A stretch of 64,000 nt of DNA from Candidatus Methylomirabilota bacterium (GTDB lineage Bacteria > Methylomirabilota > Methylomirabilia > Rokubacteriales > DASRDR01), in the NCBI GenBank assembly GCA_036001225.1, contig DASYUM010000339.1:2808-66807 (forward strand). Reading direction: 5' to 3'. A program made the position numbers and the translations under genes. This document shows, piece by piece, positions 13,583 to 49,900 of this stretch (position 1 is its first letter; the number at the start of each line of letters is the position of its first letter). The notes under the pieces were generated by a model. The model searched no databases, was not told the origin of the DNA, and was given only the letters and a program-made list of their open reading frames with translations.

Positions 13583-14923
13583 TCACCGCACCCGGCTCGG
13601 AACCGGCCCCTGCTCGACGAGCCAGCGGGCCGCCCGCAGGAGCCGGCCGTCGTCGCCCCGCGCCGCCACCAGCTGAACGCCGAGCGGCATGGCCTCCGCC
13701 CCCCGCAGGATCGGCAGGCTGACCGCCGGCACCCCGCACAGCGTCCAGATCGTGCAGAAGATCGGGCTCCCGGTCGACTCGAGGCCGATCGGCGCGGCGC
13801 CGGTGGTGGCCGGGGTCACGAGCGCGTCGTAGGCGGCGAAGATCGGCGCCAGCGCCCGGTGGAGCTGGGGGACCGCCTCCAGCGCCTCGTTGTACTCGAC
13901 CGCGCGATACGCCTGGCCGCGCTCGATCATCTCGGAGAGCCGCGGGCTCAGCCGATCCCGGCCCGCCGCGTACTCCGCCGCGAAGCTCTTCGCCAGGTCT
14001 GCCTCCATGATGGTGCGGTGCCAGCCGACCGCGTGGGCGAAGATCGGCGGCAGCTCGACCTCCACCGCCCGGTTCCCGAGCTGCGCGACCAGCGCCGGGA
14101 ACGCGGCCCGGACGTCCGGCTCCGCCTGCTCCCACATCGGCGTCCGGACGAAGGCGAGCCGGGGGGGGACGGGCGGCGTCGCCGCCACCGCGTCACGGAG
14201 CCGCGGGCGCGCTCGGGGGCGCATGGCGGCGTCACGCTCGTCGTAGACCATCAGCGCCTCGCCGAGGAGCGCGACATCCTCGAGGCTCCGCGCGAACACC
14301 CCGACCTGGTCGAGCGGCGGCGACTGGCGGAGCGCGCCATGACGCGAGATCAGCCCGTAGGTCGGCTTGTAGCCGACGACCCCGCAATAGGCGGCGGGCC
14401 GGATGACCGACCCGTTGGTCTGGGTCCCGAGGGCGAGGGGCACCATGCCCGCGGCCACGGCGGCCGCCGAGCCGCTGGAGGAGCCGCCCGGCGTGCGCCG
14501 CGGGTCGTGGGGGTTCCGGGTCTTGCCGGGCCAGTAGACGGCCAGCTCGGTAGTGACAGTCTTGCCCAGGACGATCGCCCCCGCCGCCCGGAGCAGCGCG
14601 ACCGCGGCGGCGTCCTCGGTCGGCTGGCGGCCGGCGTGGAGGACGGTGCCGTTCTCGGTCGGCATGTCGGCGGTGTCGAAGATGTCCTTCACGCCGACGG
14701 GGATCCCGTCGAGCGGGCCGAGCTCCCGGCCTGCCCGCCGGGCGGCATCGGCCTCCCGGGCCTGGCCCACGGCGTGGTCGCGATCGAGGAACGCCCAGGC
14801 GCCGACGACGGGCTCGCGCTCGGCGATCCGCTCGAGGCACGCCGCGACGACCTCCTCGGCGGTGAGCTTGCCGCGGCGGATGGCGGCGGCGGCGGCGACG
14901 GCGGTCAACGGGACCGGATCCAT
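13583..14923 (-). CDS. Amidase-signature family amidase
   Basis: Amidase signature GGSSSGSAAAVAAG and catalytic-Lys context GIPVGVKD. 446 aa. Confidence 0.85.
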   Translation of the reverse strand: MDPVPLTAVAAAAAIRRGKLTAEEVVAACLERIAEREPVVGAWAFLDRDHAVGQAREADAARRAGRELGPLDGIPVGVKDIFDTADMPTENGTVLHAGRQPTEDAAAVALLRAAGAIVLGKTVTTELAVYWPGKTRNPHDPRRTPGGSSSGSAAAVAAGMVPLALGTQTNGSVIRPAAYCGVVGYKPTYGLISRHGALRQSPPLDQVGVFARSLEDVALLGEALMVYDERDAAMRPRARPRLRDAVAATPPVPPRLAFVRTPMWEQAEPDVRAAFPALVAQLGNRAVEVELPPIFAHAVGWHRTIMEADLAKSFAAEYAAGRDRLSPRLSEMIERGQAYRAVEYNEALEAVPQLHRALAPIFAAYDALVTPATTGAAPIGLESTGSPIFCTIWTLCGVPAVSLPILRGAEAMPLGVQLVAARGDDGRLLRAARWLVEQGPVPSRVR

Positions 14924-14942
14924 GCTCGCCCCCGCCGCCGGG

Positions 14943-16119
14943 TCAGCGGCCGCCGGCGAGGTAATCCAGCGCGGCCACGATCCCGCCCTTTCGGTAGGGC
15001 ACGCCGGCCACCGCCAGTCCCATCTCGACGCCGGCCAGCGTCCCCGCCAGCATCAGGTCGTTGAAGTCGCCGAGATGCCCGATCCGGAAGACCTTGCCCT
15101 GCAGCTTGGTGAGGCCGGTTCCCAGCGACATGTTGAACCGCTCCAGCACGAGCTTGCGAAACGCGTCGGCGTCGTGGCCCTCCGGCATGCGGGCGGCCGT
15201 CAGCGAATTGCTGTACTCGCGCGGCTCCTGGCACTGCAGTTCGAGCCCCCAGGCCTGCACGGCGCGCCGGGTCGCCTCCCCGTGGCGGGCGTGGCGCGCG
15301 AAGACCGCCTCCAGCCCCTCCTCCCGCAGCATGTGGAGGGCTTCCCGCAGGCCGTAGAGCAGGTTGGTAGCCGGGGTGTAGGGATAGAAGCCGCTCCGGT
15401 TGTGCTTGAGCATCTCCTCCCACCGCCAGTAAGCGCGGGGCAGCCGGGCCTTCTCGGCCGCCTTCAGCGCCTTCTCGCTGACCGCGTTGAACCCGAGGCC
15501 GGGCGGCAGCATGAGGCCCTTCTGCGAGCAGCCGACGGTGACGTCCACCCGCCACTCGTCGTGCCGGTAGTCGATGGAGCCGAGCGACGAGATGGTGTCC
15601 ACCAGCAGGAGCGCGGGGTGACGGGCCCGGTCCATGGCCGCCCGGATCTCGTCGACCCGGGAGGTGACGCCCGTCGAGGTCTCGTTGTGGACGACGGCGA
15701 GCGCCTTGATGCTGTGGGCCTGGTCCTCGGTGAGCCTCGCCTCGACGGTCTCCGGTGAGACGCCGCGCCGCCAGTCGCCGGGGACGAACTCCACGTCGAG
15801 GTCGAGCTGCCGGGCCATCGCCTGCCACAGGGTGGCGAAGTGGCCGGTCTCGAACATGAGCACCCGGTCGCCGGGGGAGAGCGTGTTGGTGAGGGCGGCC
15901 TCCCAGGCGCCGGTCCCGGAGGAGGGATAGATGATGACCGGCCCGGCGGTCTTGAAGATCTGCCGGAGCCCGTCGAGGACCTCGCGGGCCAGCGCGGCGA
16001 ACTCCGGCCCCCGATGGTCGGCGGTGGGGGCCGCCAGCGCGCGCAGGACGCGGTCGGGGACGTTGGTCGGCCCCGGGATCTGCAGGAAGTGCCGGCCGGT
16101 CTGGTAGCGATCTGCCATG
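14943..16119 (-). CDS. Class-V aminotransferase (serine-pyruvate/alanine-glyoxylate/ureidoglycine-glyoxylate aminotransferase family)
   Basis: The real start is MADRYQTGRHFLQIPGPTNVP at ATG 16117-16119, preceded by a GGAG RBS. AGXT-like sequence throughout. Confidence 0.8.
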
Positions 16120-16313
16120 GTCCTCGACTCCTCTCTGCGGTCAGTCTTCGTCGTCGAGCTTCGCCAGCAGGGCGGCCAGCCGGAGGTCGCCGCCGGCCGG
16201 GGGTCGCCAGTCGACGGAGACCACGCGGACATTCTGCGCTTCGAAGCTCTCCGCGAACAGCTCGAGCCCGATGTTGACGACGCGCAGGGGCTCGGTGAGG
16301 ACGCTCGGCCGGC

Positions 16314-17835
16314 TCACGACGCCGCGCCCAGGAGCGAGCCGGCCAGCGCCGGCCTCACCAGCAGGGCCGCGAAGCGGCTCGCCTCGCTGTTGGTCGGCAG
16401 CACCTCGACTCCCGCCGCCTCGAGCTGCGCGATCTGGCCCGCCAGGCCCTGGGGATCACCCGCGGTGCCGACGACCGAGGCGACGGCGGCCAGCCGGCGG
16501 CCGTCGGCGTCGGCGCGCGCCCGCGCCTCGCGCAGCGCGGCGGCGACCGGAGCGGCGGGGTCTGGATGGGCGCCCCGGCCGAGCACCACGTCCAGCAGCA
16601 GCACGCCGACCTCGCGGGCGGCGCCGGCCTCGACGATCGGCTCGGCCCGCGCCCGGGGGTCCATCATCGGATGGGGCCGACCGGCGGTGAAGGCCTCGGC
16701 TCCGAGATCGAGGACGCGCGAAGCCGCGGCGCCGAGGAGCGGATCCAGGAGCAGGCGCCTCGTGGGCGAGGGTCCCGCCGGTATAGAGTCCCAGGACGCC
16801 GGCGCCGCCGGCCGCGCCGCCCGCGCGCAGGCGGGCCAGTCGCGCCCGGACGCCGGCGGGGTCGCCGAACGGCCGCGGCGCCCAGCTCTGCCCCCGCAGG
16901 AGGGCGAGCGCCGCGTCGGCCGCCTCGTCGAGCGTTCGGACCCACACCCCGGGGCCATCGCCGCCCGCACGCTCCGCTCCCAGACAGCAGACGACGACCG
17001 GCTTTCCGAGCCGGGCCAGCGCCGCGTCCAGCCGCCGCAGCGTCGTCGGGGCGGGGGGCTTCGAGATCAGCACCACGACTTCAGTGTGCGCATCCGCGTC
17101 GAGCGCGGCCAGGGCGACGCCGGTCATGGCGCCGCCCACCTCTGCCGAGAGGTCGCGGCCGCCGACGCCCAGGCCGTGGGAGATCCCCTCGCCCCCCAGC
17201 GCGACCCGGGAGACCACCGCCTGCAGCCCGGTGCCGGACGCGGCGACGCACCCGACACGCCCCCGCGGGACCACGTTGAAGAACCCGAGCCCGGTGCCGC
17301 CAAGATAGGCGGTGCCGCAGTCCGGCCCCATGCAGAGCAGCCCCCGCCGCAGCGCCTCCTGCTTCAGCGCGATCTCGTCCTCGACCGGCACGTTGTCGCT
17401 GAAGAGGAAGACGTGGCGGTTCCGGCGGAGCGCCCGCATGGCCTCCGGGCCGGCGTAGGCGCCCGGCACCGAGATCGCCACCAGGTTCGCATCGGGAAGC
17501 CGGCGAAGTGCCGACTCCAGCGTGCGCGGCCGGAACGTGGTGGCGGTCTCCGCGGCCCGGCGCCGCGCTGCCAGTAGCTCGCGCGCGGCGGCGAGCGCGG
17601 CCAGCGCCGCCGGCTCGCTCTCCGCCTCGACGGCCAGCACGAGGTCGTCGGGGCGCGCCTTTCGGCTCTCGGCGTCGAGGAGCCCCGCCTGCTCGAGGAG
17701 CGCCTGATTCGCCGGCGTGCCCATGAAGGCGGCGGCCTCCCGCACCCCCGGCCGGTCGCGTAGCTCGGCGGCGATCCGCATGAGAACCACCGAGTCCTGA
17801 TAGAAGGAAGGCAGGACCGCGGTCCGGACCGGCAC
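16314..17835 (-). pseudogene. fdrA: FdrA-like protein (acyl-CoA synthetase NDP-forming / AllF-type) interrupted by a single-base frameshift near 16750-16770. This may be a sequencing error
   Basis: The N-terminal 355 aa (ORF 16456-17835) match FdrA motifs (QDSVVLM, MGTPANQALL, MGPDCGT, ASGTG, LGVGGRDLSAEVGG, ISKPPA, GLYTGGTLAHEA). The C-terminus continues in another frame (ORF 16314-16970: AGRPHPMMDP…VLLLDVVLGRGAHPDPAA). Confidence 0.7.
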
Positions 17836-17836
17836 G

Positions 17837-18753
17837 TCAGCCCCGCCGCCGGAGGCAGGCGCCGGTGACCGCGGCGATCCCGGCCAGGGCGTCCCAGCCC
17901 GAGGTGTGCCCGATCGCGTCCACCGCGTCGAGGCACGTGGCGAGTCGCGGCCGATCGGCGCTCGACACCGCCGCCAGCGTGTCGTGGAGCGCGGCGGCGC
18001 CCTCGCCGGCCGCCGCGCAGGCGAGGTGAGCCCGGCTGATGACCGTCGTCCGCTCGCGGGCCACCGGGAGCGCCCAGCCGGCCAGTGCCCGCGCGAGGTC
18101 GGCTCGGTCCACCGCGTGGAGGGCGAGCAGGATGCCGGCCACGAAGTCGTCGCCCGCCGGCGTCAGTCCCGGGCCGAGGCCGACGAGGCTCGCCGCCTCG
18201 GCCGGCGGCGGCGATGGGGCCCCGGCCCCGGAGACGGCCGCGAGGCCGGCCTCGAGCCAGTCGAGCAAGGGGACGATGCCCCGCCAGGCCAGGCTCAGCA
18301 GCGGCGGGTCGGCCGGGCGGGGACGCCGGGCGGAGACCGCGGTGGCGAGCGGCGTGATCAGCCGGCCGAGGCCCTCGGCCGGCGCCCGCTCGCCGGCGGC
18401 CGCCGCCAGGACGGCCACCCCGCGGGCGAAGTCGGCCGAATGCCGGGCGCCGGGCAGCGGAGCGGGGTGCCAGAGGGCGGCCCCGCCGAGCTCGAAGACG
18501 AAGCGCCCGTCGACGCGCAGGGTCGCGCCGTTGGCCTCCACACCCGCACCGGGGAGGAGGCCGCTCGCTTCCCAGTCGAGCGCCGACGGCAACACGCCCA
18601 GCGCGTTGAGCGGGCCGGCGCCAAGCCCGCGGGGACCGAGGCAGACCACGGACCCGCCGGCGTCCCGGCAGTAGAAGCTCCGGCGAAAGACGGCGAGGAC
18701 GCGCCAGCGCGTCTCACCGGCGAGCGCACGGCGAGCCGGGCCGCCGATCAGCA
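17837..18753 (-). CDS. DUF2877 family protein (YlbF/AllH-like, a partner of FdrA in oxamate carbamoyltransferase)
   Basis: N-terminal motif RVLAVFRRSFYCRDAGGSVVCL resembles the YlbF VVHSVFRHAVNVQLNDGQLVSL motif. The gene overlaps the fdrA start. The start codon is uncertain (GTG at 18751-18753 chosen). The long ORF's N-terminal extension is the translated intergenic repeat. Confidence 0.55.
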
Positions 18754-18857
18754 CGACGGGCACCGGACGCGGAACGAGGGCCACCGGCAGCGCGACGCCG
18801 GTTGCAGCTCGCACGGCGGGACCGGCGGTGGAACCGGGCTGAGGCCCGAGCAGCCCT

Positions 18858-18928
18858 AGGACGCAGGGAGGAGGCGGGCCGAGGCGTATGCCGCATACGT
18901 TGAGGCCCGCCGATGACCGAGGACGACG
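18858..18928. repeat. Intergenic structured repeat element, copy 1: GGCGGGCC-GAGG-CGTATG-CCG-CATACG-TTGA-GGCCCGCC nested hairpins
   Basis: A second, longer copy is at 55341-55468. The outer stem shows compensatory changes between copies (GGCGGGCC/GGCCCGCC versus GGCGGCCC/GGGCCGCC). Confidence 0.65.
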
Positions 18929-18956
18929 GGATGCGACGGGCATCGGCCCGGGCCGG

Positions 18957-20204
18957 TCAGCCGATGAAGCGCCAGTCATAGGGCGCCCGGGAGATAACCT
19001 CCGGCCCGTGGGCGGTGACGATCAGCTGTTCCTCGAGCTTGACGCTCTCGCGGCCGTTTTCCTCTCCGACCAGGGCCTCGACGCAGATCACCATGTTCTC
19101 CTGGAGCACCTCCGGGTCGTTGCCGAAACCACTCCAGCTCATGTCCGGGAAGTAGATCGCCGGCCACTCGTCGGACATCCCCGCGCCGTGGGCCAGCACC
19201 ACATAGCGGCTCGCCTTGTACTTTTCGGGGAACGCCGGCGCCTTCTCGGCGATCTCCTGAAAGCCCATCCCGGGCCGAAACAGCGGAATCGATTCCTGGA
19301 TGAAGCGGTGGGCGAATGCGTAGAGCTCCCGCTGCTCGGCGGTGGGCGGGCGGTCGCCGCAGAGGTAAGTCCGGGAGATGTCCGCGAAGTAGCCGAGCGG
19401 ACCTGCCATGTCGGTGTCGAACGCGACCAACTCGCCGTCGCGGACCAAACGGTCGGACGCCGCCTGATACCAGGGATTGGTGTGTCCCCCGGCGGTCAGC
19501 AAGCGGCCGTCGGCGTGCTCCCCGCCCAGCCGGATGTTGGTCCCGGTGAGGACCGCCCACAGCTCGTTTTCGGTCACGCCGGGGCGGATCGCGTCCCGGA
19601 GCGCGCAGATGGCGGCGTCGACGACGGCGCAGGCCTGCCGGATCAGCGTCAGCTCATCCGGGGTCTTGATGGCGCGCGCCTTCTCGACCGCCACCCGGGC
19701 GTCGGCCAGCCGGAGCTGCTGCGCCCGGAGCGCCTCGAATCCGACGAAGTCGAGGCGATCGATCCCGATCCGCTCCCGGCCCAAGCCCAGCTCGTCGATG
19801 GTCGCCTTGAGGTCGGCCGCCCACCGCCGGGCGGCCTCCCCCAGGTTCCGCCCACAGGGGAAGAAGTCCCAGGTCCGGGCGTTCCGGACGTCGAGGGTGG
19901 CGTCGCCGGCCAGGCTGTCGGTGACGCCGCCGAAGAGGATCGCCCGCCCGGTGCGGGGGACGAGGGCGTAGCGGTAGTAGAAGCGGAGGCCGTAACCGGT
20001 CGAGGAGTCACGGGTGCCGGTGGCGTAGCGGATGTTGAGCGGGTCGTAGAGAAGGGCGGCGCCCAGCTCCGCCCGCCCGAGCTCGGCCTGCAGGCGGGCC
20101 AGCCGCTCGCGCTTCAGCCGCGCGGCGTCGACGCGCGGCTCGTAATCGACGATCTGCTGGCCTACGAGGTCCCGCTGGTGCACCCCCGTGACTTCGCTCG
20201 CCAT
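18957..20204 (-). CDS. M24-family metallopeptidase (creatinase/prolidase N-domain + Xaa-Pro aminopeptidase-like)
   Basis: 415 aa. M24 metal-ligand context (…HGAGMSDEWP…, …VICVEALVGEENGRESVKLEEQ…). Confidence 0.75.
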   Translation of the reverse strand: MASEVTGVHQRDLVGQQIVDYEPRVDAARLKRERLARLQAELGRAELGAALLYDPLNIRYATGTRDSSTGYGLRFYYRYALVPRTGRAILFGGVTDSLAGDATLDVRNARTWDFFPCGRNLGEAARRWAADLKATIDELGLGRERIGIDRLDFVGFEALRAQQLRLADARVAVEKARAIKTPDELTLIRQACAVVDAAICALRDAIRPGVTENELWAVLTGTNIRLGGEHADGRLLTAGGHTNPWYQAASDRLVRDGELVAFDTDMAGPLGYFADISRTYLCGDRPPTAEQRELYAFAHRFIQESIPLFRPGMGFQEIAEKAPAFPEKYKASRYVVLAHGAGMSDEWPAIYFPDMSWSGFGNDPEVLQENMVICVEALVGEENGRESVKLEEQLIVTAHGPEVISRAPYDWRFIG

Positions 20205-20231
20205 GGCTCGCCTCCGTCGTCGGAAGACCGG

Positions 20232-21479: not shown

Positions 21480-21570
21480 GCGCTGGCCTCACCAGCCCGG
21501 CGCGGCACCGGGCCGTCGAACAGTTCGCCGCTGCCTCTCCGGACCGGAATGGGCGTCGGCCTCGGCCGGG

Positions 21571-21894
21571 TCACTGGAGGACATCGTCGGCGCGGACCAG
21601 GATCGATTGGGGGATCGTGAGCCGGAGCGCCTTCGCGATCAGGTCGGCGGCCAGGCCGGGCAGTCGCTCCAGCCGCCCCTCGGCCGTCTGAAAGTCGATC
21701 GCCAGGTTCCGGCCGTCGACGTAGCCCAACTCCCGCAATCTCTGCTCGAGCCCCTGGTAAGTGGGGGCAGACCGCGGGACCCCGACGCTGAGAATGGCTA
21801 TCCGCCAGACCGTCGCCGGCGGCTGGGCCTCGCCAGCGGGCACGCCGCCGAGCCCGAGGACGAGTGCGAGCAGGAGCGCCGCGCGCCGTCTCAC
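21571..21894 (-). pseudogene. Remnant (~107 aa) of an ABC transporter substrate-binding protein (ABC_sub_bind/DUF534 type), internally deleted and truncated
   Basis: Signal-peptide-like RRRAALLLALVLGLGG followed by RIAILSVGVP…ELGYVDGRNLAIDF…TIPQSILVRADDV. It ends after ~110 aa, whereas full-length homologues are ~320 aa. Its GTG overlaps the cupin stop (GTGA). Confidence 0.5.
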
Positions 21895-22379: not shown

Positions 22380-22392
22380 CGCGGCACCCTCC

Positions 22393-25451: not shown

Positions 25452-25572
25452 TCGCGCGCGGCCGGAGACTGAATCGCCGACCGTATGGTGGTCCGCTCCG
25501 AGCGGCGGCTTTGCCGCCGCAATTTTCCTGGGGGAGGTCTCGGAGGGGGCCGTCGAGGCCCCCTCCGAAAAT

Positions 25573-28871: not shown

Positions 28872-31162
28872 GGCGGCGGCCCGTCGCCACGCGCCGCCTG
28901 CAGGGCGCGCCAGACGCGCTCCGGGGTCAGCGGCAGCTCGGTGAGCCGGACGCCCACCGCGCGGGCGAGGGCGTTCCCGACCGCGGGGGCCACGCAGAAC
29001 GTCCCGCTCTCCCCCACGCCCTTCGCGCCGAAGGGGCCGGGTCCGTCGCCGTTCTCGACCAGCAGCGTGTCGAGCCGGTCCGGCAGGTCGGCGAAGGTCG
29101 GCAGGCGGTAGTCGATCAGCCCGGGATTCAGGAGCTGGCCCGCCTCCCCGACCCGGGCCTCGAACAGAGCGGGGCCGAGTCCCTGCATCGCCGCGCCCTC
29201 GTCCTGGGCCGCGCACTCGCGCGGGTTGATGGCCTGCCCCACGTCGGCGGCCGAGACGTACCTCCGCAGCCGCACCGCGCCGGTCTCTGCATCGACCTCG
29301 ACCTCGGCGGCGCCCATCCCGGTCTCCCAGAACACGGTGGCGCCGCCCAGCGTCCCCGACCACGTCGTGGGGACGAAACTGCCGACGCCGGTCACCTCGC
29401 CGCCGACGAAGCCGAAGTGGCCGCGGACGACCTCGGCCACCGTGAGTGAGTGCGCGCCATGGACGACGCGGCCGTCCCGGACGTCGAGGGCCGCGGGGTC
29501 GGCGCCGAGGCGGTCGGCCGCGAGGGCGCAGAGCTGGAGCCGGGCATCGCGGGCGGCCGCCTGGACGGCGAGCCCCATCACGGTCGTCGAGCGGCTGGCG
29601 CTGGTCCCGTGGTCGTACGGCGTGAGCGACGTATCGGGGAGGGCGACGACGACGCTCTCGAACGGAACCCCGAGCGTCTCGGCGGCGATCTGGGCGAGGA
29701 CGGTCTGGGCGCCCTGCCCCACCTCGACCGTGCCGGCCAGGAGGCTCACGCTCCCGTCGGCGTGGATCCGGACCACCGCGCTGGACACCGTGTGTGTCCC
29801 GCCGCCGTCCTTCATCGCGACCGCCAGGCCCCGGCCGCGGCCCGGCCCGAGCGCGGCGCCCCAGTCCACCGCCTGGGCCGTCCCCTGGAGACCCTCGGCG
29901 AGGTCGCCGTCCATCGGCGTGTCGCCCGCCACGTATTCCTCGCCGCGCTTGAGCAGGTTCTTGAGCCGGAAGGCCAGCGGGTCGAGGCCGAGCCGCTCGG
30001 CGAGCACGTCCATCTGCGACTCGGAGGCCCAGGTGACCTGGGGCACGCCGTAGCCCCGGTAGGCGCCGGCCGGGACGTTGTGGGTGTAGACGCAGCGCGC
30101 CTCGATCCGGAGCGCCGGGATGCGGTACGGTCCCGGCGCGCGGTACCCGGCCTTCGTCGCGACGCGGGGGCCGATGTCGGCGTAGGCGCCGGTGTCGAGG
30201 ACGGCGTCGCACTCGCGCGCCAGCAGCGTCCCGTCCCGCCGGACTGCGGTCCGGAGCCGGACCGTCACCGCGTGGCGGGTGACGGTGCGCGCGCTCTCCT
30301 CGAGCGAGAGCGCCAGGCGCACGGGCCGGCCGACTCGGGCGGCCAGCGCGGCGGCGATCGGCTCGATCTTGGTGTAGCACTTCCCGCCGAAGGCCCCGCC
30401 GACGAGGGGGACGACCACCTGGACCCGGGCGAGGGGGAGATCGAAGATCTCCGCCAGCTCCTTCCGGACCGCGAACGGGTGCTGGGTGCCGGTCCACACG
30501 GTGAGGCCGTCCTCGTCCAGCCGCGCCACCGCGCAGTGGGGCTCGAGGGCGTGGTGGGAGAGCGCGGGATAGCGGTAGACCTCGTCGACGACCAGGTCGG
30601 CCTCGGCGAATGCCCGGGCGCGGTCGCCCCGCGCGTACTCGAAGTGGTGGCAGACGTTGGTTCCCGGCACCGGCCGGAGCCCGGCGAGGTCGCGGAAGCG
30701 TCCGGCCCGCTCGCGCTGGGGATGGACCAGGGGCGCGCCGGACGCCAGCGCCAATTCGGCGCTCGTCGCGGCCGGCTGCTCCTCGTAGCGGACCTCGAGG
30801 AGGCCGACGGCCGCCTCCGCGTGGGCCTCGGTGTCGGCGACCGCGGCGACCACCGGCTCCCCCGCGAAGCGGACCTCCTCGTGGGCGAGGATCGGCTGGT
30901 CCCGGAAGGCCGGGCCGTAGTACAGGCGCGCGACGGGCAGGTCGGCGGCCGTGCAGACGGCCAGGACGCCGGGGGCGGACGCCGCGCGGGACGTCTCGAC
31001 GCCGAGGAGCCGGGCGTGAGGGACCGGGCTTCGCCACAGCTTGGCGTGGACGAGGCCCGGGAGCACGAGATCGCTGACGTAACGGGCCTCGCCGGTCACC
31101 TTCTCCCGGGCGTCGAGTCGGGGCACCGAGCGGCCGACGACGCTCAGGTGCTCAGCGGCCAT
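28868..31162 (-). CDS. Xanthine-dehydrogenase-family molybdopterin-binding large subunit (CoxL/XdhA-like), paralogue A
   Basis: 764 aa with motif GAYRGYGVPQ. Co-directional with the 2Fe-2S and FAD subunit genes. Confidence 0.85.
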   Translation of the reverse strand: MAAEHLSVVGRSVPRLDAREKVTGEARYVSDLVLPGLVHAKLWRSPVPHARLLGVETSRAASAPGVLAVCTAADLPVARLYYGPAFRDQPILAHEEVRFAGEPVVAAVADTEAHAEAAVGLLEVRYEEQPAATSAELALASGAPLVHPQRERAGRFRDLAGLRPVPGTNVCHHFEYARGDRARAFAEADLVVDEVYRYPALSHHALEPHCAVARLDEDGLTVWTGTQHPFAVRKELAEIFDLPLARVQVVVPLVGGAFGGKCYTKIEPIAAALAARVGRPVRLALSLEESARTVTRHAVTVRLRTAVRRDGTLLARECDAVLDTGAYADIGPRVATKAGYRAPGPYRIPALRIEARCVYTHNVPAGAYRGYGVPQVTWASESQMDVLAERLGLDPLAFRLKNLLKRGEEYVAGDTPMDGDLAEGLQGTAQAVDWGAALGPGRGRGLAVAMKDGGGTHTVSSAVVRIHADGSVSLLAGTVEVGQGAQTVLAQIAAETLGVPFESVVVALPDTSLTPYDHGTSASRSTTVMGLAVQAAARDARLQLCALAADRLGADPAALDVRDGRVVHGAHSLTVAEVVRGHFGFVGGEVTGVGSFVPTTWSGTLGGATVFWETGMGAAEVEVDAETGAVRLRRYVSAADVGQAINPRECAAQDEGAAMQGLGPALFEARVGEAGQLLNPGLIDYRLPTFADLPDRLDTLLVENGDGPGPFGAKGVGESGTFCVAPAVGNALARAVGVRLTELPLTPERVWRALQAARGDGPPP

Positions 31163-31646
31163 CGCCCGGCCCGGCGTGGCCCGGCTGCCGAGAAGCGGCC
31201 AGGATCGCCTCCAGGATGCGCTTGTAGCCGGTGCACCGACAGATGTTGCCGCGCATGTAGCGCTTGACCTGGTCGGCCGTCGGCGTCGGGTTCTCCTCGA
31301 GCAACGCCACGGTGGCCATGATCATCCCCGGCGTGCAGAAGCCGCACTGGAGGGCGCCGTGCTCGACGAAGGCCGCCTGCACCGGGTGGAGATCGTCCCC
31401 GCGGGCGAGGCCCTCGATGGTGCGGACGTGCGTGCCCCGGGCTTCGAAGGCGAGGACGGTGCAGGCGCTCACCGGCCGGTCGTCGAGGAGCACGGTGCAG
31501 GCCCCGCAGACCTGGACCTCGCACGACTTCTTCACGCCGAGGAGGCCCAGGCGGTCGCGGAGGCATTCGATCAGGGTCTCCCACGGCGGGACGGTCAGCT
31601 GGTGCCGCTCGCCGTTGACCGTCACCGTCATCGGCACTTCTTTCAT
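31152..31646 (-). CDS. (2Fe-2S)-binding small subunit of the Mo hydroxylase (CoxS-like)
   Basis: MKEVPMTVTVNGERH…CEVQVCGACTV…CGFCTPGM…CRCTGY, with two [2Fe-2S] Cys clusters. The real start is ATG 31644-31646. Confidence 0.85.
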   Translation of the reverse strand: MKEVPMTVTVNGERHQLTVPPWETLIECLRDRLGLLGVKKSCEVQVCGACTVLLDDRPVSACTVLAFEARGTHVRTIEGLARGDDLHPVQAAFVEHGALQCGFCTPGMIMATVALLEENPTPTADQVKRYMRGNICRCTGYKRILEAILAASRQPGHAGPGDGR

Positions 31647-31753
31647 CGGGTCCACCCCCGACCCCTCCCCACCCACCGGGGGGAGGGGTGAGTCGCGACC
31701 GGCCCTCGGCCGGCACTCACGGACCAACCCTCCCCGCTGCCACCTCCGGCACC

Positions 31754-32635
31754 TCAGAGGACTGGACTGCCGTCCCGCAGCGAGGCGAGGGCCTGGGCGA
31801 AGGCCCGCTTGAGCAGGACCCCGACCAGGTGGGCCTTGAAGTCGGCCGAGCCGTGGAGGTCGGTGACCGCATCCGCCGCCTGCCCGGCCCGCCGTCCGGC
31901 CTCGGCGAGCGCCGCCACGCTCTCGTCGATCGCCCGGTCCCGCAGCATCGCCTCGGCCTCGGGCATCCGGCACGGTACGGGGCCGACGCACCCGACCGCG
32001 ACCCGGGCGTCGGCGACCCGCCCGTCGTCGAGCGTGAGCGCGACCGCCACCCCGACCGAGGGGCGCTCGAGGTACCCGAACTTGAGATAGGCCGCCGCCG
32101 ACCGGGGCGGAAGCGGGGGGACCGCGATCTCGGTCAGCACCTCGTCGCCCTCCAGGCACGTCTCGTACGGACCCCGGAAGAGCGCGGTGAGCGGGACCGT
32201 CCGCTCGCCGCCCGCGCGCTCGAGCCGTGCCGTCGCGGCGAAGACCTGGAGGAGCGGCCCCGGATCGGCGTGAGGCTCGGCGAAGCAGAGGTTGCCGCCG
32301 AGCGTCCCCACCGCGCGGACACGGACGTTGGCGACGTCGGCCTCCAGGCGGGCGAGAGCCGGGAAGTGCTCGCGGACCAGCGGCTCCCGCTCGAGGGCGC
32401 GGTGGGTGGCGGCGGCGCCGATCCGGAGGGTGCCGTCGGCGTCGCGGCGAAGGCCGGCCAGCCCGGGAACCGTCTTGAGGTTCACCAGGTAGTCGTAGTG
32501 GACCAGGCCCTCCTTCATCGCCAGCAGCAGCTCGGTCCCCCCCGCGTAGAGCCGGGCCGCGTCCCCGTGCTGGGCCAGGAGGCCAGAGGCCTCGGCGACG
32601 GAGGTCGGCTCGCAGAGCTCGAACGGCCTCAGCAC
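31754..32635 (-). CDS. FAD-binding medium subunit of the Mo hydroxylase (CoxM/XdhB-like)
   Basis: 293 aa with an FAD-binding PCMH-type domain (YAGGTELLLAMKEGL…). Confidence 0.85.
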   Translation of the reverse strand: MLRPFELCEPTSVAEASGLLAQHGDAARLYAGGTELLLAMKEGLVHYDYLVNLKTVPGLAGLRRDADGTLRIGAAATHRALEREPLVREHFPALARLEADVANVRVRAVGTLGGNLCFAEPHADPGPLLQVFAATARLERAGGERTVPLTALFRGPYETCLEGDEVLTEIAVPPLPPRSAAAYLKFGYLERPSVGVAVALTLDDGRVADARVAVGCVGPVPCRMPEAEAMLRDRAIDESVAALAEAGRRAGQAADAVTDLHGSADFKAHLVGVLLKRAFAQALASLRDGSPVL

Positions 32636-32639
32636 GCGC

Positions 32640-33092
32640 TCACCCCGGGGTCTCCAGCTGCGCGCGCAAGGCCGCCGCGAACCGGTCCACGATCTCGGCG
32701 CCCTTGCGCACGATGACGCCGTGGCCGAGCGTGCCCAGCTTCCCCAGGACCGTGATCTCGGCCGTCAGCCGGAGCGCCGTCCCGCCGTCGGTGGGCGCCA
32801 GCACGACGTCGAGGTCCACCTTCACCAGCCCGTCGACGGCCGCGTCGCGCCCGCCGGCGCGGGCGCGGAGCCGCGCCGGCGGCTCGACCTCGACGACCTC
32901 GATGTCCAGGGGGAACTGGACCTTGAACGGCCCGACCTTCTCGGCGACCACGGCGGCGTAGCGCTTGCCCGCCTCGACCGTCCGCACCTCCCGGGCCCCC
33001 GGGACGCAGGCGGCCAGCCGCGGGATGTCCCAGAGAAAGCCCCAGACGGTCTCCCGCGACGCCCCGATCCGGATCTCGCGCTCGACTCTCAC
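32640..33092 (-). CDS. coxG: CoxG-family SRPBCC protein
   Basis: ~150 aa (VEREIRIGASRETVWGFLWDIPRLAACVPGA…). GTG start at 33090-33092. The upstream part of the 408-aa ORF in the track is junk. Confidence 0.65.
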   Translation of the reverse strand: MRVEREIRIGASRETVWGFLWDIPRLAACVPGAREVRTVEAGKRYAAVVAEKVGPFKVQFPLDIEVVEVEPPARLRARAGGRDAAVDGLVKVDLDVVLAPTDGGTALRLTAEITVLGKLGTLGHGVIVRKGAEIVDRFAAALRAQLETPG

Positions 33093-34636
33093 GGGGCTCG
33101 CGACACCTCGGAGGCCTCCAGCACCGGAACCGGCCGGAAGACGAGCGACTTGATCACCACCGGGACGATGCCCGAGACGGGCAGCGGATCCCCGACGTCG
33201 ATGTAGTCGAAGGCGGCGAGGTCCAGCTCGTCCACCGCCACTAGGCTCGGCCCCGCCCCCAGCTCCTCGACCAGGAGCCGCCCCACCAGCCGCGCGATGT
33301 CGCGGTCGAAGGCCAGCACCACCGGAGCGTCGCGGCGCCCGATGGCGGCCAGGATCCCTTCCCCGAGCGCCCGCAGTTCCTCGTAGCTCGAGCCGAACTC
33401 CCACCGGATGGCGAGCGCGAGGGGTCCGGCCAGGAGCTCGGGATCGTGGCCCGCCATCGCCGTCTGGACCGCGCGCGCGACGCCGGTCGCCGTCAGCGGA
33501 TCGGCCAGGCGCACGGGGAAGACCGGCAGATTCCGCAGGACGAGGCCCGGCCGCGGGTGGAAGATCGTGCTGCCGCTCACCTGCACCGTGTACTGGGCCG
33601 CCCCGATGACGGTCGCCCGGATGCCCTCGTCCGCCTCGACGAGGCGCGGGCCCAGCGGGTGCCCGGTGAGCCGCCGCCGCACGGCCTCGCCCAGCATCCG
33701 GCCGAGGTCGCCGAAGCCTCCGGGCTCCCGGCCGTAGACGTACTCGGCGACGCCGCCGGAGAACATGAGGGCCGTGACGGGCTCGGCCCGGGCCAGGGGC
33801 GCGGTGTGCATGAGACGGCGGCTCAGCGGCGAGAGCGGACGGCGGTCGATCACCTCGAAGAGGCACTCGACCATTCGCGCCACGAGGTCGCCGAGGAGCG
33901 CGGCCCGGGCCGGCTCGTCGATGGGGTCGCCGAGGGCGAGCCGGCCGCCCGCCGTCTCGGCCAGCTCGGCGCCGGCCTCCTCCAGCCGGCTGACGCGCCC
34001 ATCCTCCCAGGCGACGAGCCGCCCGCCGACGTTGATGACGGCCGTGTCCACGACTTCGCCGTCCCGGCAGAGCGCCAGCTTGCTCGTCCCGCCGCCGACG
34101 TCCACGTTGAGCACGGCTCCGCCCTGCCGCGAGCGGGCCACGGCGCCGGAGCCGTGCGCGGCCATGATCGCCTCCAGGCGGGGGCCGGCGGTGGCGCAGA
34201 CGAACCGCCCGCCGTCGCGCGCGAAGAGCCCGAGGATCGCCTCCGCGTTCGTCTTCTTGGCCGCCTCCCCGGTGACGATGACCGCCCCGGTGTCGATCGC
34301 CTCTCGGGAGAGGCCGGCTCGCCGATAGGCGTCGTCGACGAATCCGGCCAGCCGCTCGGCGTCGATGGTGACCGGGTCCCGATACGGCGTCAGCAGGATC
34401 GGCGACTGGTGGACGACGTCGCGTTCGACCACGCGGTACCGACTGGACAGGCTCAGCCCGAGGCGGCGGAGGACCAGGCGGGAGAAGGTCAGGTGCGAGG
34501 TCGAGGAGCCGATGTCGATGCCGACGCTGCGCAGCTCGATCCGCTCGGCCGCCCAGACCGGGTCGGCCTCGTCGGGCAGGCCGACCGGATCGCCCTCGTG
34601 GGCGTCGTGCTCGTGGGAGTGGGGAAAGTCGTGCAT
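33089..34636 (-). CDS. EutA-like ASKHA-superfamily protein (homologue of the ethanolamine ammonia-lyase reactivase)
   Basis: Start MHDFPHSHEHDAHEG at ATG 34634-34636, overlapping the bicupin stop (ATGA). Collinear with EutA: SVGIDIGSSTSHL, AIDTGAVIVTGEAAKK, VLNVDVGGGTSK, VINVGGRL, MFSGGVAEYVY, ATVIGAAQYTVQVSGSTIF, VVIKSLVF. Confidence 0.7.
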   Translation of the reverse strand: MHDFPHSHEHDAHEGDPVGLPDEADPVWAAERIELRSVGIDIGSSTSHLTFSRLVLRRLGLSLSSRYRVVERDVVHQSPILLTPYRDPVTIDAERLAGFVDDAYRRAGLSREAIDTGAVIVTGEAAKKTNAEAILGLFARDGGRFVCATAGPRLEAIMAAHGSGAVARSRQGGAVLNVDVGGGTSKLALCRDGEVVDTAVINVGGRLVAWEDGRVSRLEEAGAELAETAGGRLALGDPIDEPARAALLGDLVARMVECLFEVIDRRPLSPLSRRLMHTAPLARAEPVTALMFSGGVAEYVYGREPGGFGDLGRMLGEAVRRRLTGHPLGPRLVEADEGIRATVIGAAQYTVQVSGSTIFHPRPGLVLRNLPVFPVRLADPLTATGVARAVQTAMAGHDPELLAGPLALAIRWEFGSSYEELRALGEGILAAIGRRDAPVVLAFDRDIARLVGRLLVEELGAGPSLVAVDELDLAAFDYIDVGDPLPVSGIVPVVIKSLVFRPVPVLEASEVSRAP

Positions 34637-35700
34637 CAGTGGCGCACGACCGCGGGCATGCGGCTCGAGACCCCCTCCTGGGCCAGCTCGGTCTCGAACA
34701 GCGCGCGCACCGCCGGAACCTCGTCCTCGTACTCGATCTGGTTCCCGCCGGTGGCCCGGTCCTCCGAGAGCCGATCGTGCTTGTCGTCGAGCTTGTGCTT
34801 CACGCTCCCCCAGCGGATCGCCAGGTAGCGCGCCGGGGTGGGGCCGGCGTTGAAGTGCTGGTGCCACCAGTAGTCGGGCGGAACGAACACGCTCCCCTCG
34901 TGCCAGTCGACCTTGGTCCATGGCTGGCCGTCCGGCCAGAGCAGCGAGTACCCCCGGCCGCCCAGGATGATCACGTTGGCACCGGGCCCGTGCCGGTGCG
35001 CCTTCTTGTACGTTCCCACCGGAAACTCCGAGATGTGGGCGATCAGGGTGTTGTTGGCCAGCTCGAACATGATGTTGCTGCCGCCCGCGCCGCGCTCCTT
35101 CCACTCGAGGAGCTGGAACGCCTTCACGTCGGGAATGAAGTTGGCTTCCCAGATCCGGCTGGCCAGGAACGTCCCTTTCCCGCTGAAGGCGTCGGCCTCC
35201 GCGGTGAACCGGTCGCGGAAGACGGAGGGGTTGTCGAAGACGAAGTCGTGGTTGTGGAAGAGATTCATGACCAGGGGCGCGCTGGTGACGGCGTAATAGC
35301 GGGCCGGCTGGGTTCCCGACGCGTTGAAGTGCTGGTGGAAGGCGTTGAGGGGGATCGCGAAGAGGCTGCCCGCCTGCCACTCGAAGGTGATCTTGAGGCT
35401 GCCCTCGATCCAGACCGCCGTCGAGCCGCGGCCGGCGAGGACGTAGATCACCTCCTCGTAGAGGTGGCGCTGGGGCGCCAGCTTCCCCCCCGGCGCGATC
35501 TCGCACACGTAGGCGCCGTTGGTCCCCCCCGTCCCTTCCATGTCGATGAAGACGCCCCGGCCGCCCTTGCGGGCCCAGGGGGCCAGATCCACCATCCGCA
35601 GGTCCTCGACGTAGAAGCCGCGGATGACGGGGAGCCCCTCGGACTGCTGCCATTGCTCGTAGGTGCTGCGCATGGTGACGGGGCTGTTGGAGATCGGCAT
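34636..35700 (-). CDS. Bicupin protein (gentisate 1,2-dioxygenase-like double cupin)
   Basis: ATG 35698-35700 with an AGGGGGA RBS. Two internally duplicated cupin halves each carry HQHFN…PARY. HRHGPGANVII is also present. Confidence 0.7.
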   Translation of the reverse strand: MPISNSPVTMRSTYEQWQQSEGLPVIRGFYVEDLRMVDLAPWARKGGRGVFIDMEGTGGTNGAYVCEIAPGGKLAPQRHLYEEVIYVLAGRGSTAVWIEGSLKITFEWQAGSLFAIPLNAFHQHFNASGTQPARYYAVTSAPLVMNLFHNHDFVFDNPSVFRDRFTAEADAFSGKGTFLASRIWEANFIPDVKAFQLLEWKERGAGGSNIMFELANNTLIAHISEFPVGTYKKAHRHGPGANVIILGGRGYSLLWPDGQPWTKVDWHEGSVFVPPDYWWHQHFNAGPTPARYLAIRWGSVKHKLDDKHDRLSEDRATGGNQIEYEDEVPAVRALFETELAQEGVSSRMPAVVRH

Positions 35701-43662: not shown

Positions 43663-43666
43663 CGGG

Positions 43667-49526: not shown

Positions 49527-49900
49527 GAGCAGATCCGCGCCTGGCCGCCCGGGATGCGCGCGGTCGAGGGCTCCGGCAGGACCGGCGCGCCATTCCGGGG
49601 GTGTCGATGGGTTTCCCGGCGGAGGGGGGGCCAGCACGATACCTCCTTGGCTACCCTCCCCCCCGAGAGCAGCCGGGCGAGGCCAGTGAAGGCCAGCCTC
49701 GCGAACGCGGACCACAGTCTAGGGACGGCCTGGCCATTAGTCAAGAATTGGACCGATCGCCTGCGGAGGCGGATGATGCGCGCCCCGTCCCGATGTCGGC
49801 GACCCTGGCTTTTCCTGCTCGCCTCGATTTGCTGGCATGCCGCTGTCAGCATCGCGGAGCGGCCGGTCCCGGCCCCCGCCGGAAAGTGAGGCGCGCCACC

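Follow-up and report, generated by a model that had tools for sequence, protein, structure and literature searches.

A 22-kb co-directional gene array is probably a concatenation of separately inherited cassettes with a recurrent link between a TTT importer and a molybdenum hydroxylase

This locus raises the question of whether 22 kb of minus-strand genes, running from a bicupin through a molybdenum hydroxylase and a TTT importer to relatives of AllH and AllF (FdrA), encode one pathway or several that lie in a row. The original prediction described a single integrated pathway leading from ring hydroxylation to ureido or oxamate-type products. The 64-kb window, meaning the whole stretch of DNA, derives from an uncultured soil bacterium related to Candidatus Rokubacteria/Methylomirabilota. 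From our analysis of it, we judge it moderately probable that the array strings together, in one direction and in a strain-specific way, at least five cassettes that were inherited separately, and is not one conserved pathway.

The co-directional layout described earlier was borne out by codon-position GC and by the genes that JGI had called independently on contigs nearly identical to this one. From 35700 down to 13583, twenty consecutive minus-strand genes follow one another unbroken with intergenic spacing of -11 to +142 nt, and the gene order is identical in three independent assemblies. This number of same-strand genes, with ends mostly overlapping or nearly abutting, is far above the expectation for random orientation. 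Bacteria often have such strand runs, which alone do not demonstrate a single operon. The gene calls place the upstream limit at about 35700/35739, the latter being an alternative start of the bicupin, and the downstream limit at 13583; the hybrid histidine kinase beyond it (10069-13362) is likewise on the minus strand. The earlier inventory of genes was correct, and nearly all of its domain calls were upheld by Pfam and NCBIfam, which were used for domain assignment (Table 1). The most likely starts according to the JGI calls are 16118 for the aminotransferase (391 aa) and 24351 for TctA-TctB (652 aa), and a conserved 58-aa ORF between fdrA and the aminotransferase gene had been overlooked.

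Table 1. Features of the array and of the two divergent genes next to it
Feature	Position	Strand	Basis
4,5-Dihydroxyphthalate (DHP)-decarboxylase-like, divergent	35779..36753	+	PDB 9jp7, E 4e-82
Dienelactone hydrolase (DLH), YghX-like	36760..37617	+	Pfam DLH 170 bits
Bicupin, first gene of the array	34636..35700	-	gentisate/salicylate 1,2-dioxygenase fold
EutA-like ASKHA ATPase, bicupin partner	33089..34636	-	Pfam EutA 387 bits
CoxG-family SRPBCC protein	32640..33092	-	Pfam COXG 58 bits
FAD-binding medium subunit	31754..32635	-	FAD_binding_5 + CO_deh_flav_C
2x[2Fe-2S] small subunit	31152..31727	-	Fer2 + Fer2_2
Mo-hydroxylase large subunit A, 764 aa	28868..31162	-	Ald_Xan_dh_C + MoCoBD_1 + MoCoBD_2
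Mo-hydroxylase large subunit B, 756 aa	26601..28871	-	Ald_Xan_dh_C + MoCoBD_1 + MoCoBD_2
TctC solute-binding protein 1, 343 aa (JGI call)	25573..26604	-	Pfam TctC
TctC solute-binding protein 2	24417..25580	-	Pfam TctC
Fused TctA-TctB permease (TctAB)	22393..24351	-	Pfam TctA 408 bits + TctB 41 bits, single ORF
Single-domain cupin, 162 aa	21891..22379	-	Cupin_2
ABC-type (PF04392) binding-protein relic	21571..21894	-	Pfam ABC_sub_bind, profile positions 14-66 only
D-Amino-acid dehydrogenase, DadA family	20232..21479	-	NCBIfam PRK00711 390.5 > cut-off 383
M24 hydrolase with Creatinase_N domain, nearest DddP	18957..20204	-	Pfam Creatinase_N + Peptidase_M24
Short repeat element, window-specific insertion between M24 and AllH genes	18821..18947	.	
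AllH (DUF2877) homologue	17837..18814	-	Pfam AllH 84 bits > 25
AllF/FdrA homologue, split	16314..17781	-	NCBIfam FdrA profile 6-346 and 368-497, two frames
58-aa ORF, detached C-terminal tail of E. coli-type FdrA	16141..16317	-	FdrA profile 505-554 of 555
Class-V glyoxylate aminotransferase, serine/aspartate-glyoxylate type	14943..16118	-	PDB 6pk1 391 bits
Amidase-signature amidase, nearest malonamidase E2	13583..14923	-	Pfam Amidase 298 bits

The hydroxylase block is headed by CoxG, which is kept at 77-81% in loci L003 and L004; the small subunit shows 85-88% identity to its counterparts there. Both large subunits, 60% identical to each other, are complete, and each has the (A/V)(Y/F)RG(Y/F)G motif and the catalytic Glu (GAYRGYG and GAKGVGESG in A, VAFRGYG and GAKGIGESG in B). 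Judged from these residues, both paralogues appear catalytically competent, and they are retained together in L001, L003 and L004. Comparison with PDB structures gave the alpha subunit of 4-hydroxybenzoyl-CoA reductase (4-HBCR; 1rm6) as the nearest solved structure of A, at 351 bits versus about 210 bits for true xanthine dehydrogenases (XDHs), and B matched 1rm6 at 346 bits. The enzyme had been described as XDH-like and not a CO dehydrogenase; the latter is supported, and the former holds at the superfamily level and no further. The FAD subunit scored under all NCBIfam equivalog cut-offs, and its match to HcrB (TIGR03195) was partial (121.8 < 404.55).

The linkage of this block to the importer is established by its recurrence. 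The comparison took the fused TctAB gene as its anchor and comprised 80 loci with an orthologue or paralogue of it; across these the fusion is conserved in Rokubacteria, Binatia and Deltaproteobacteria, and a large-subunit gene (at least 45% identity) adjoins TctAB in 38 of them, so the importer-hydroxylase coupling proposed earlier is well supported. The best solved matches of both TctC proteins, although weak, were the terephthalate binders TphC/TBP, and TTT binding proteins for terephthalate and quinolinate are already known (PMC8556258, PMC11452294). On such fold-level and neighbourhood hints, among them the DHP decarboxylase and DLH genes, the substrate of the importer and hydroxylase is most likely an aromatic or heteroaromatic carboxylate.

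The bicupin carries a 3-His type motif in its C-terminal cupin only. Its EutA-like partner falls below every NCBIfam EutA equivalog cut-off (319 < 598) with no EutB or EutC gene nearby, and the pairing of the two is seen again in L093 and L094. The two divergent genes had been identified correctly; orthologues of the DHP-decarboxylase-like gene (79-80%) are divergent to TctAB in L002, L004, L005, L007, L008, L010, L016 and L065, and the DLH scores 297 < 460 against NCBIfam YghX.

The array consists of at least five separable cassettes: bicupin with EutA-like protein; CoxG-FAD-2Fe2S with the two Mo large subunits; TctC-TctC-TctAB (with the cupin); DadA with the M24 hydrolase; and AllH-AllF-tail-aminotransferase, then the amidase. 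Their boundaries and independent distribution were read directly from relatives. L003 has the order EutA-CoxG-FAD-FeS-large subunit A-large subunit B-TctC-TctC-TctAB-PIN-cupin, followed by a convergent NRPS gene, and L004 has a minus-strand DHP decarboxylase gene and then CoxG-to-TctAB, without bicupin or EutA. L093 carries bicupin (86%), EutA (79%), TctC (74%) and TctAB (80%) without the hydroxylase, and L094 contains two to three bicupin/EutA pairs next to Rieske, LigB and Amidohydro_2 genes. The downstream half, from DadA to the amidase, was found in none of the 80 TctAB loci, a limited sample of mostly short contigs in which even the nearest relatives, other than identical ones, reach only about 80-88% protein identity. 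The independence of the pieces in L093, L004 and L003 does not support the single pathway of the original prediction, which is also undercut by a decayed binding-protein gene at the junction of the halves.

The upstream and downstream halves meet at this relic, an in-frame internal deletion that joins about 85 N-terminal residues to about 22 C-terminal residues, and both of its ends can be aligned with a homologue in L008 that has the full length of 326 aa. The cupin overlaps the relic by 4 nt and the gap from relic to dadA is only 91 nt; with spacing this tight, transcription could read through the entire array. The cupin has an orthologue (86%) in L003, and the conserved block stops with it there. 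One short contig has a 175-aa cupin whose immediate downstream neighbours are AllH, at 63% identity, and FdrA, so the cupin of the array might bridge both halves.

In the downstream half, the DadA-M24 pair is repeated only in L096 (86% identity for DadA and 80% for M24), and M24 orthologues elsewhere (75-80% identity) adjoin an ion channel, TauD or acyl-CoA ligase, which are unrelated contexts. The M24 hydrolase had been called creatinase-like; a DddP-like assignment fits better, given the matches to NCBIfam DddP (278.6 < 600) and to the DddP structures 4rzy/4b28 (about 216 bits); creatinase was not among the PDB matches.

We found 615 AllH homologues. The neighbours of AllH/FdrA homologues include carbamate kinase, AllG, ureidoglycolate lyase, AllD-type dehydrogenase, class-V aminotransferases and oxalate-degradation genes, which supports the ureide-type family proposed for this pair. 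The repeat element is missing from L081 and L084 and has a second copy in the window at about 55330-55468; because it is inserted next to the AllH gene, the AllH start is uncertain. The fdrA gene is broken by a window-specific 2-nt deletion at 16754, read directly at the junction, whereas the sibling assemblies L081 (437.5 > 433) and L082 have an uninterrupted copy. Homologues of the 58-aa tail occur as free ORFs of 55-59 aa in L085-L088 and L103, and in L090 the AllG protein, of 472 aa, begins with a homologous segment. The tail is a separate ORF here, part of FdrA in the E. coli type and fused to the AllG N-terminus in some genomes. The aminotransferase is not UGXT-like as had been suggested, since it matches serine-glyoxylate aminotransferase at 391 bits versus 147 for PucG and 123 for UGXT; it scores 457 < 650 against NCBIfam BhcA. 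In L090 and L091, its orthologues (75-78%) have carbamate kinase-AllH and AllG-AllF as neighbours. The FdrA clade was shown to belong to oxamic transcarbamylase, although FdrA by itself lacked this activity, and the E. coli system also needs AllG and carbamate kinase (PMC11326118). AllG and carbamate kinase, and also AllD, are absent from the 64-kb window.

A single operon would take up an N-heterocyclic carboxylate or purine-like compound, hydroxylate it and open its ring to ureido or oxamate intermediates, leaving FdrA/AllH, the aminotransferase, the amidase, M24 and DadA to finish the breakdown. The tightly spaced 22 kb kept in three assemblies, the ureide contexts of AllH/AllF relatives, the TTT-hydroxylase linkage, the cupin adjoining AllH on one contig and the existence of quinolinate-binding TTT proteins (PMC11452294) all agree with it. 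However, the two halves occur together nowhere outside this strain population, a decayed gene separates them, and Pfam and NCBIfam revealed no ring-opening amidohydrolase of the allantoinase, barbiturase or hydantoinase type in the array; with an aminotransferase not of the UGXT type, no AllG, carbamate kinase or AllD in the window, a broken fdrA and an AllH disturbed by insertion, we consider this reading rather unlikely. The opposite extreme, in which unrelated genes share a strand by chance in a region prone to rearrangement and no functional organisation exists above single genes, would account for the high modular turnover in relatives, the relic and lesion features, and the PIN toxin gene inserted at one shared spot in L003 and L093. 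It is distinctly improbable, as bicupin-EutA, CoxG-FAD-FeS with both large subunits, TctC-TctAB-hydroxylase, DadA-M24 and AllH/AllF/tail/aminotransferase are kept as units across genomes and phyla, and the blocks contain translationally coupled overlaps.

Two further readings concern the hydroxylase substrate. If the enzyme acted on an aromatic or furan acyl-CoA, like 4-HBCR or furoyl-CoA dehydrogenase, FdrA could be an acyl-CoA synthetase linking the halves; among solved structures and NCBIfam models alike, all three large subunits are clearly closest to 4-HBCR alpha, and FdrA is a member of the succinyl-CoA-synthetase-alpha/NDP-forming acyl-CoA synthetase superfamily. This is very improbable, given that the scores reach about half the HcrA cut-off (503 < 994.55), the FAD subunit lacks a full HcrB-like match, no CoA ligase lies near the hydroxylase block in L003/L004, FdrA homologues accompany carbamate kinase and not hydroxylases, and the FdrA clade has a demonstrated place in oxamic transcarbamylase (PMC11326118). 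A purine pathway, with a genuine XDH and a downstream anaerobic allantoin/oxalurate route as in E. coli, would agree with XdhA/PucD models among the top NCBIfam matches and with the presence of the AllF and AllH families. Nevertheless, all XDH equivalog scores are far under cut-off (e.g. 496 < 780 and 436 < 784), the structural scores favour 4-HBCR alpha, and the window holds no uricase, allantoinase or allantoate amidohydrolase and none of the AllG, carbamate kinase or AllD genes. The Glu after GGxFGxK in XDH binds purine, but the residue at this place is Cys/Ser, or Arg-Glu is shifted, and the purine pathway is extremely improbable.

For the concatenation of cassettes, the substrate class, the reaction order and any cross-talk between the halves are matters of inference. 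The upstream part (35700-21891) would be centred on the TTT importer, with the two TctC proteins and TctA-TctB importing what is most likely an aromatic or heteroaromatic carboxylic acid. The CoxG-associated hydroxylase would oxidise the imported acid, with electrons passing from Mo through 2x[2Fe-2S] to FAD, and subsequent ring processing probably falls to the bicupin and the EutA-like ATPase paired with it, as well as to the divergent DHP-decarboxylase-like and DLH genes. The downstream part (21479-13583) would be a small-nitrogen-compound set in three pieces: the DadA and DddP-like M24 pair; the relatives of the oxalurate-phosphorolysing system, namely AllH, AllF plus the detached tail, and the glyoxylate aminotransferase; and the malonamidase-like amidase, a possible hydrolase of oxamate or a similar amide-acid. 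The amidase matches malonamidase E2 in the PDB at 226 bits with every NCBIfam equivalog under cut-off, and L086 has an amidase of 41% identity close to AllFGH and oxalate genes.

The genes from the bicupin to the amidase form an unbroken minus-strand series, which was seen both in the codon-position GC analysis and in the JGI gene calls on three near-identical contigs (L081-L083, 99.7-99.98% identity) derived from three JGI soil samples. The co-directional array of the original prediction is therefore real. Pfam and NCBIfam upheld essentially all of the predicted domains, among them the TctA-TctB fusion and a pair of complete large subunits; these subunits contain the motif (A/V)(Y/F)RG(Y/F)G. 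The divergent genes were likewise confirmed as a 4,5-dihydroxyphthalate (DHP)-decarboxylase-like gene (PDB 9jp7, E 4e-82, a full-length match of 279 bits, with no curated cut-off existing for comparison) and a dienelactone hydrolase (DLH) gene. Weak NMT1/SsuA matches in Pfam and NCBIfam had suggested a solute-binding protein for the former, and this was overruled by the PDB search. Raw ORF lists were full of spurious frames because the GC content of the window is about 72%. Intergenic distances inside most blocks range from -11 to +27 nt, and the widest gaps precede tctAB (65 nt), dadA (91 nt), allH (DUF2877; 142 nt), and fdrA (allF; 55 nt).

Coordinates of the features discussed (window positions unless a comparison contig is named)
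Feature	Position	Strand	Remark
Catabolic array	~35700/35739 to 13583	-	
Bicupin + EutA-like ATPase	33089-35700; L093 8919-11533; L094 4879-11500		recurrent two-gene unit
Large subunit A	28868-31162	-	
Large subunit B	26601-28871	-	
Large subunit C	40412-42673	-	orphan third paralogue; 53% identical to A; without own FAD/FeS genes
Operon of C	40412-45855	-	
Protein without family match	38648-40321		557 aa; comes after the C operon
YnfA/UPF0060 homologue	37840-38097	-	profile positions 3-65 of 107 only; possibly truncated
DHP-decarboxylase-like gene	35779-36753		divergent to the array
Binding-protein remnant	21571-21894	-	
PIN-domain toxin gene	L003 12192-12623; L093 14966-15412		directly after TctAB
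Short repeat	18821-18947; ~55330-55468		copies 89-93% identical
fdrA	16314-17781	-	GC deletion at 16754
Tail ORF	16141-16317	-	58 aa; overlaps the fdrA stop by 4 nt
SBP_bac_1 binding protein	49793-51243	+	two overlapping frames, profile 12-176 and 221-302
Large sensor proteins	10069-13362; 45945-49715; 57292-63140		

The locus is a catabolic island in which a molybdenum hydroxylase is linked to a tripartite tricarboxylate transporter (TTT), beside ureide-family genes. Its content was largely as described, but the single hydroxylation-to-ureide pathway proposed for it was not supported by gene-neighbourhood conservation. All array proteins were run by tblastn against 80 TctAB-anchored loci and against loci reached through AllH, EutA-like, and M24 homologues. 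Locus L003 carries EutA-CoxG-FAD-FeS-LA-LB-TctC-TctC-TctAB (LA and LB being large subunits A and B), behind which lie a PIN gene, the cupin (86%), and an NRPS gene in convergent orientation. Locus L004 begins at CoxG opposite the DHP-decarboxylase gene, has no bicupin or EutA, and continues with unrelated genes after TctAB. The bicupin (86%), EutA (79%), TctC (74%), and TctAB (80%) occur without the hydroxylase in L093, and two or three bicupin/EutA pairs lie beside Rieske, LigB, and Amidohydro_2 genes in L094. At least eight loci of Rokubacteria have the DHP-decarboxylase orthologue (79-80%) in divergent orientation to TctAB, which looks like a stable frame that receives enzyme cassettes. The genes from DadA to the amidase were found downstream of the cupin in none of the loci compared. 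M24 orthologues (75-80%) adjoin an ion channel, TauD, or acyl-CoA ligase gene, and among these loci the DadA (86%)-M24 (80%) pair was kept only in L096. This independent distribution of the pieces indicates that the array consists of at least five cassettes.

In these comparisons, the upstream and downstream halves occur together in this strain population alone, with a decayed gene between them. In the remnant at the junction, the ~85 N-terminal and ~22 C-terminal residues of a PF04392 binding protein are linked without a frame change, and a full-length 326-aa homologue comes after TctAB in L008. As a PIN-domain toxin gene is inserted directly after TctAB in two relatives, this spot is likely to be a recombination-prone boundary. 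A mosaic of separately inherited cassettes would best account for this arrangement, although the spacing across the junction is close, one contig has a cupin directly upstream of a 63%-identical AllH, and few close relatives have been sampled. An alternative is that the array is a recently assembled, functional single operon for an undescribed route from an imported N-heteroaromatic carboxylate to oxalurate/oxamate-type products. In such an operon, the EutA-like ATPase would activate or repair the bicupin, which has a gentisate-dioxygenase fold, two different catalytic large subunits would work on one electron-transfer module, and AllF and AllH would form a transcarbamylase with a free-standing tail that is independent of AllG (DUF1116). 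We consider this combination improbable. If the cassettes were indeed inherited separately, long co-directional runs in uncultured high-GC soil bacteria should be taken as single pathways only with caution, and the cassettes would have been exchanged around a stable importer frame (DLH and DHP decarboxylase divergent to TctAB). The bicupin/EutA-like pair, the link between TctAB and the large subunit, and a ~55-aa AllF/AllG module are of more interest than the supercluster as a whole. Further attention is deserved most by the pair, the two large subunits, and the mobile AllF-tail module.

The hydroxylase has the composition of the L-M-S type of the xanthine dehydrogenase (XDH) family, with hammerhead, MoCoBD_1, MoCoBD_2, FAD_binding_5, and Fer2/Fer2_2 domains all above the Pfam cut-offs. 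The motifs GAKG(V/I)GESG (catalytic Glu) and (A/V)(Y/F)RGYG (Arg motif) are present in large subunits A, B, and C; the functions given here to the C-terminal Glu and to the Arg in xxRGxG are those published for XDH and its relatives. Subunits and domains (FAD_binding_5/CO_deh_flav_C, Fer2/Fer2_2, and hammerhead with MoCoBD_1/2) are the same as in HcrABC (PDB 1rm6) and other L-M-S hydroxylases, and the CoxG accessory protein, the catalytic Glu, and the Arg-containing motif are also kept. Unlike these systems, the window enzyme stays under every curated equivalog cut-off, shows no full HcrB-type match, and has two full-length paralogous large subunits with one FAD and one FeS subunit in common. 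Its genes also sit within a TTT importer operon, and an orphan third large subunit lies 9 kb away.

All three large subunits are nearest to the alpha subunit of 4-hydroxybenzoyl-CoA reductase (1rm6; 351 bits for A and 346 bits for B), whereas CO dehydrogenases, quinoline oxidoreductase, and nicotinate dehydrogenase reach at most 261 bits and true XDHs about 210 bits. A, B, and C reach about half of every NCBIfam equivalog cut-off and, by these scores, would fall in no curated family. Three known enzymes were rejected. 4-Hydroxybenzoyl-CoA reductase proper failed for the alpha (TIGR03194, 503 < 994.55) and beta subunits (TIGR03195, 121.8 < 404.55, a partial match only). Form I aerobic CO dehydrogenase failed by score (TIGR02416, 292 < 991) and by the active-site loop, where A has GAYRGYGV and B has VAFRGYGV in place of VAYRCSFR. 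XDH proper failed all curated equivalogs (XdhA_XDHase 496 < 780, PRK09970 470 < 916, PucD 436 < 784, XdhB 302 < 850), and the purine-binding Glu is missing after the GGxFGGK-type motif (GGAFGGK-C in A and GAAYGNK-S in B), the position presumed for it from bovine XDH. Quinoline 2-oxidoreductase, nicotinate dehydrogenase, and 6-hydroxypseudooxynicotine dehydrogenase are further three-subunit hydroxylases of the XDH family.

A and B share 60% identity, both with the catalytic Glu and the Arg motif, and both are kept at 79-84% identity in L001, L003, and L004. The two genes are a maintained duplication served by one FAD and one FeS subunit, and their products could form a heteromeric A/B enzyme or two isoenzymes. 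The gene for C belongs to an operon in the order luciferase-like monooxygenase, amidohydrolase, luciferase-like monooxygenase, and large subunit.

The full TTT set is encoded together, with TctA (408 bits) and TctB (41 bits) fused and two TctC proteins (37 and 42 bits), all above cut-off. The search of the genome collection with the TctAB protein gave the 80 loci, of which the top ones are from Candidatus Rokubacteria/Methylomirabilota MAGs at 73-83% identity. A large subunit (at least 45% identity) lies beside TctAB in 38 of them, from Rokubacteria, Binatia, and Deltaproteobacteria, and in 35 of these 38 it is a convergent orphan gene without FAD/FeS partners. These 35 loci (within L019-L078, Binatia and Deltaproteobacteria MAGs) have a fused TctAB and usually one TctC, and the subunit, ~52% identical to A, is encoded just downstream. 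Coupling of importer and hydroxylase is the best-supported functional link of the array. As a recurrent, cross-phylum association of one fused-TctAB clade with one large-subunit clade, it offers a handle for assigning the substrate of both; the genes around one such orphan, the large subunit of L050, offered no hint of the substrate.

Among solved structures, both TctC proteins match terephthalate binders (TphC) best, at 39-45 bits, which is too weak for ligand inference. Terephthalate is taken up by TphC-TpiBA, a TTT-type system (PMC8556258), and quinolinate-binding Bug proteins of the TTT type have been described (PMC11452294). As in TphC-TpiBA-type clusters, TctC binding proteins and the TctA/TctB membrane part are encoded with catabolic enzymes, but the window differs in its fused TctA-TctB, its two binding proteins, and a molybdenum hydroxylase in place of a Rieske dioxygenase. 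Taken together, the DHP-decarboxylase-like and DLH genes, the aromatic surroundings in L094, the low-scoring TphC-like matches, and the published terephthalate and quinolinate binders hint at an aromatic or heteroaromatic carboxylate as the substrate class. A literature search combining Rokubacteria, XDH, and TTT found nothing relevant.

The pair of bicupin and EutA-like ATPase, which is highly conserved and occurs very widely, has no assigned function and outranks the supercluster in interest. Databases contain more than 7900 relatives of the bicupin family at 58-62% identity, from Binatia, Chloroflexi, Acidobacteria, and Rokubacteria, and NCBI names some of them 'ethanolamine ammonia lyase-activating protein'. 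No characterised member of the family was found, and a literature search on the EutA-like and bicupin system returned nothing relevant. Compared with gentisate and salicylate 1,2-dioxygenases (PDB 3bu7, 2phd), the window bicupin has only 14-18% identity, carries its His motif in the C-terminal instead of the N-terminal cupin, and is paired, it seems obligatorily, with a gene for an EutA-like ATPase. Membership among gentisate 1,2-dioxygenases was rejected on sequence and on the N-terminal 3-His iron site. EutA itself, the ethanolamine ammonia-lyase reactivase, was also rejected (best equivalog 319 < 598); EutB/EutC domains were found neither in the window nor in the contexts of L093 and L094.

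The oxamic transcarbamylase of E. coli requires allF, allG, and allH and works with the carbamate kinase AllK (PMC11326118). In the window, the AllH domain is present (PF11392, 84 bits > 25), and fdrA is split, with the NCBIfam FdrA profile divided between two frames (6-346 and 368-497) and the junction reading ...YTGGTLAHEA|LLLDPLLG. Base-by-base comparison with L081 and L082 located a 2-nt (GC) deletion; both sibling contigs have an intact 489-aa ORF, and the L081 copy scores 437.5, above the FdrA cut-off of 433. Either strain variation or faulty assembly may explain the deletion, and an assembly indel is possible because the SBP_bac_1 gene of the window is also split. The repeat copy of ~127 nt that separates the M24 gene from allH interferes with the start region of allH; its absence from L081 and L084 suggests a recent insertion or a strain variant.

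Downstream of fdrA, an ORF not listed in the original prediction matches positions 505-554 of 555 in the FdrA profile, the C-terminal tail of E. coli-type FdrA. Homologues occur as free ORFs of 55-59 aa after AllF or AllG (L085-L088, L103) and as an N-terminal extension of AllG in L090 (472 aa) and L091, so the tail is regarded as a detachable AllF-tail/AllG-head module. The occurrence of this ~55-aa module as FdrA C-terminus, AllG N-terminus, or free ORF is a Rosetta-stone pattern that supports physical contact between AllF and AllG within the recently discovered oxamic transcarbamylase.

The body of AllG is absent from the 64-kb window, where tblastn with two AllG proteins matched only the tail ORF; carbamate kinase gave no tblastn match better than E = 1, and no AllD-type dehydrogenase was found there. 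Carbamate kinase adjoins AllH in L085-L091 and L103. AllH homologues (48-56%) normally have carbamate kinase, AllF, the small ORF, and in most cases AllG as neighbours, in loci that also hold oxalyl-CoA decarboxylase/formyl-CoA transferase/amidase genes, or two class-V aminotransferases with Ldh_2 (AllD-type) and ureidoglycolate lyase. The order carbamate kinase-AllH-AllF-tail recurs without AllG in L088, where AllF shares 69% identity with that of the window, and an AllG-independent variant is therefore conceivable. The likeness to E. coli AllFGH and AllK lies in an AllF that passes the FdrA cut-off in its intact sibling copy, in the AllH domain, and in the association of homologues of this clade with carbamate kinase, AllG, and ureidoglycolate enzymes. 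The window differs in having no AllG or carbamate kinase, in its separate tail and frameshifted fdrA, and in its neighbours, which are DadA, an M24 hydrolase, a serine-glyoxylate (SGAT)-type aminotransferase, and an amidase instead of allantoin genes.

DadA is above the NCBIfam PRK00711 cut-off (390.5 > 383). The predicted creatinase-like M24 protein has the Creatinase_N and Peptidase_M24 Pfam domains, but its closest solved relative is DddP, with no creatinase among the PDB matches (E <= 1e-5), and it remains under the DddP equivalog (278.6 < 600). An M24 fold with Creatinase_N beside a DAO-family flavoenzyme resembles creatinase with sarcosine oxidase, or DddP (PDB 4rzy, 4b28), except that the flavoenzyme is DadA-type and not SoxB-type. 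The resemblance of the aminotransferase to UGXT was not borne out: it matches 6pk1 (serine-glyoxylate) at 391 bits, against 147 for PucG (3isl) and 123 for UGXT (3nnk), and is of the serine/aspartate-glyoxylate type, with a score under the cut-off of the BhcA (L-aspartate-glyoxylate) model NF045640 (457 < 650). Its orthologues (75-78%) are located in loci of the AllH/carbamate kinase type. Malonamidase E2, whose substrate is a small amide-acid one carbon longer than oxamate, is the nearest solved relative of the amidase, and a 41% homologue of the amidase lies near AllFGH and oxalate genes in L086. The downstream half is most economically read as a nitrogen-scavenging set for small ureido, amide, or amino compounds, possibly incomplete or decaying in the window. 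An oxidative pyrimidine route (uracil dehydrogenase/barbiturase/ureidomalonase) was dropped, as a gene of the barbiturase/AtzD type is missing.

Between 13300 and 33200, matches to promoter and terminator consensus sequences were no commoner than in shuffled sequence, and they did not reveal operon boundaries. Neither Rfam, at its gathering threshold, nor a tRNA search gave a match anywhere in the window, and these scans provided no evidence of a riboswitch, promoter, or regulator; no DNA-binding regulator adjoins the catabolic array in the window. Large sensor proteins are unusually dense in it, comprising two hybrid GAF/PAS histidine kinases, an adenylate-cyclase-AAA-TPR protein, and another PAS-GAF kinase.
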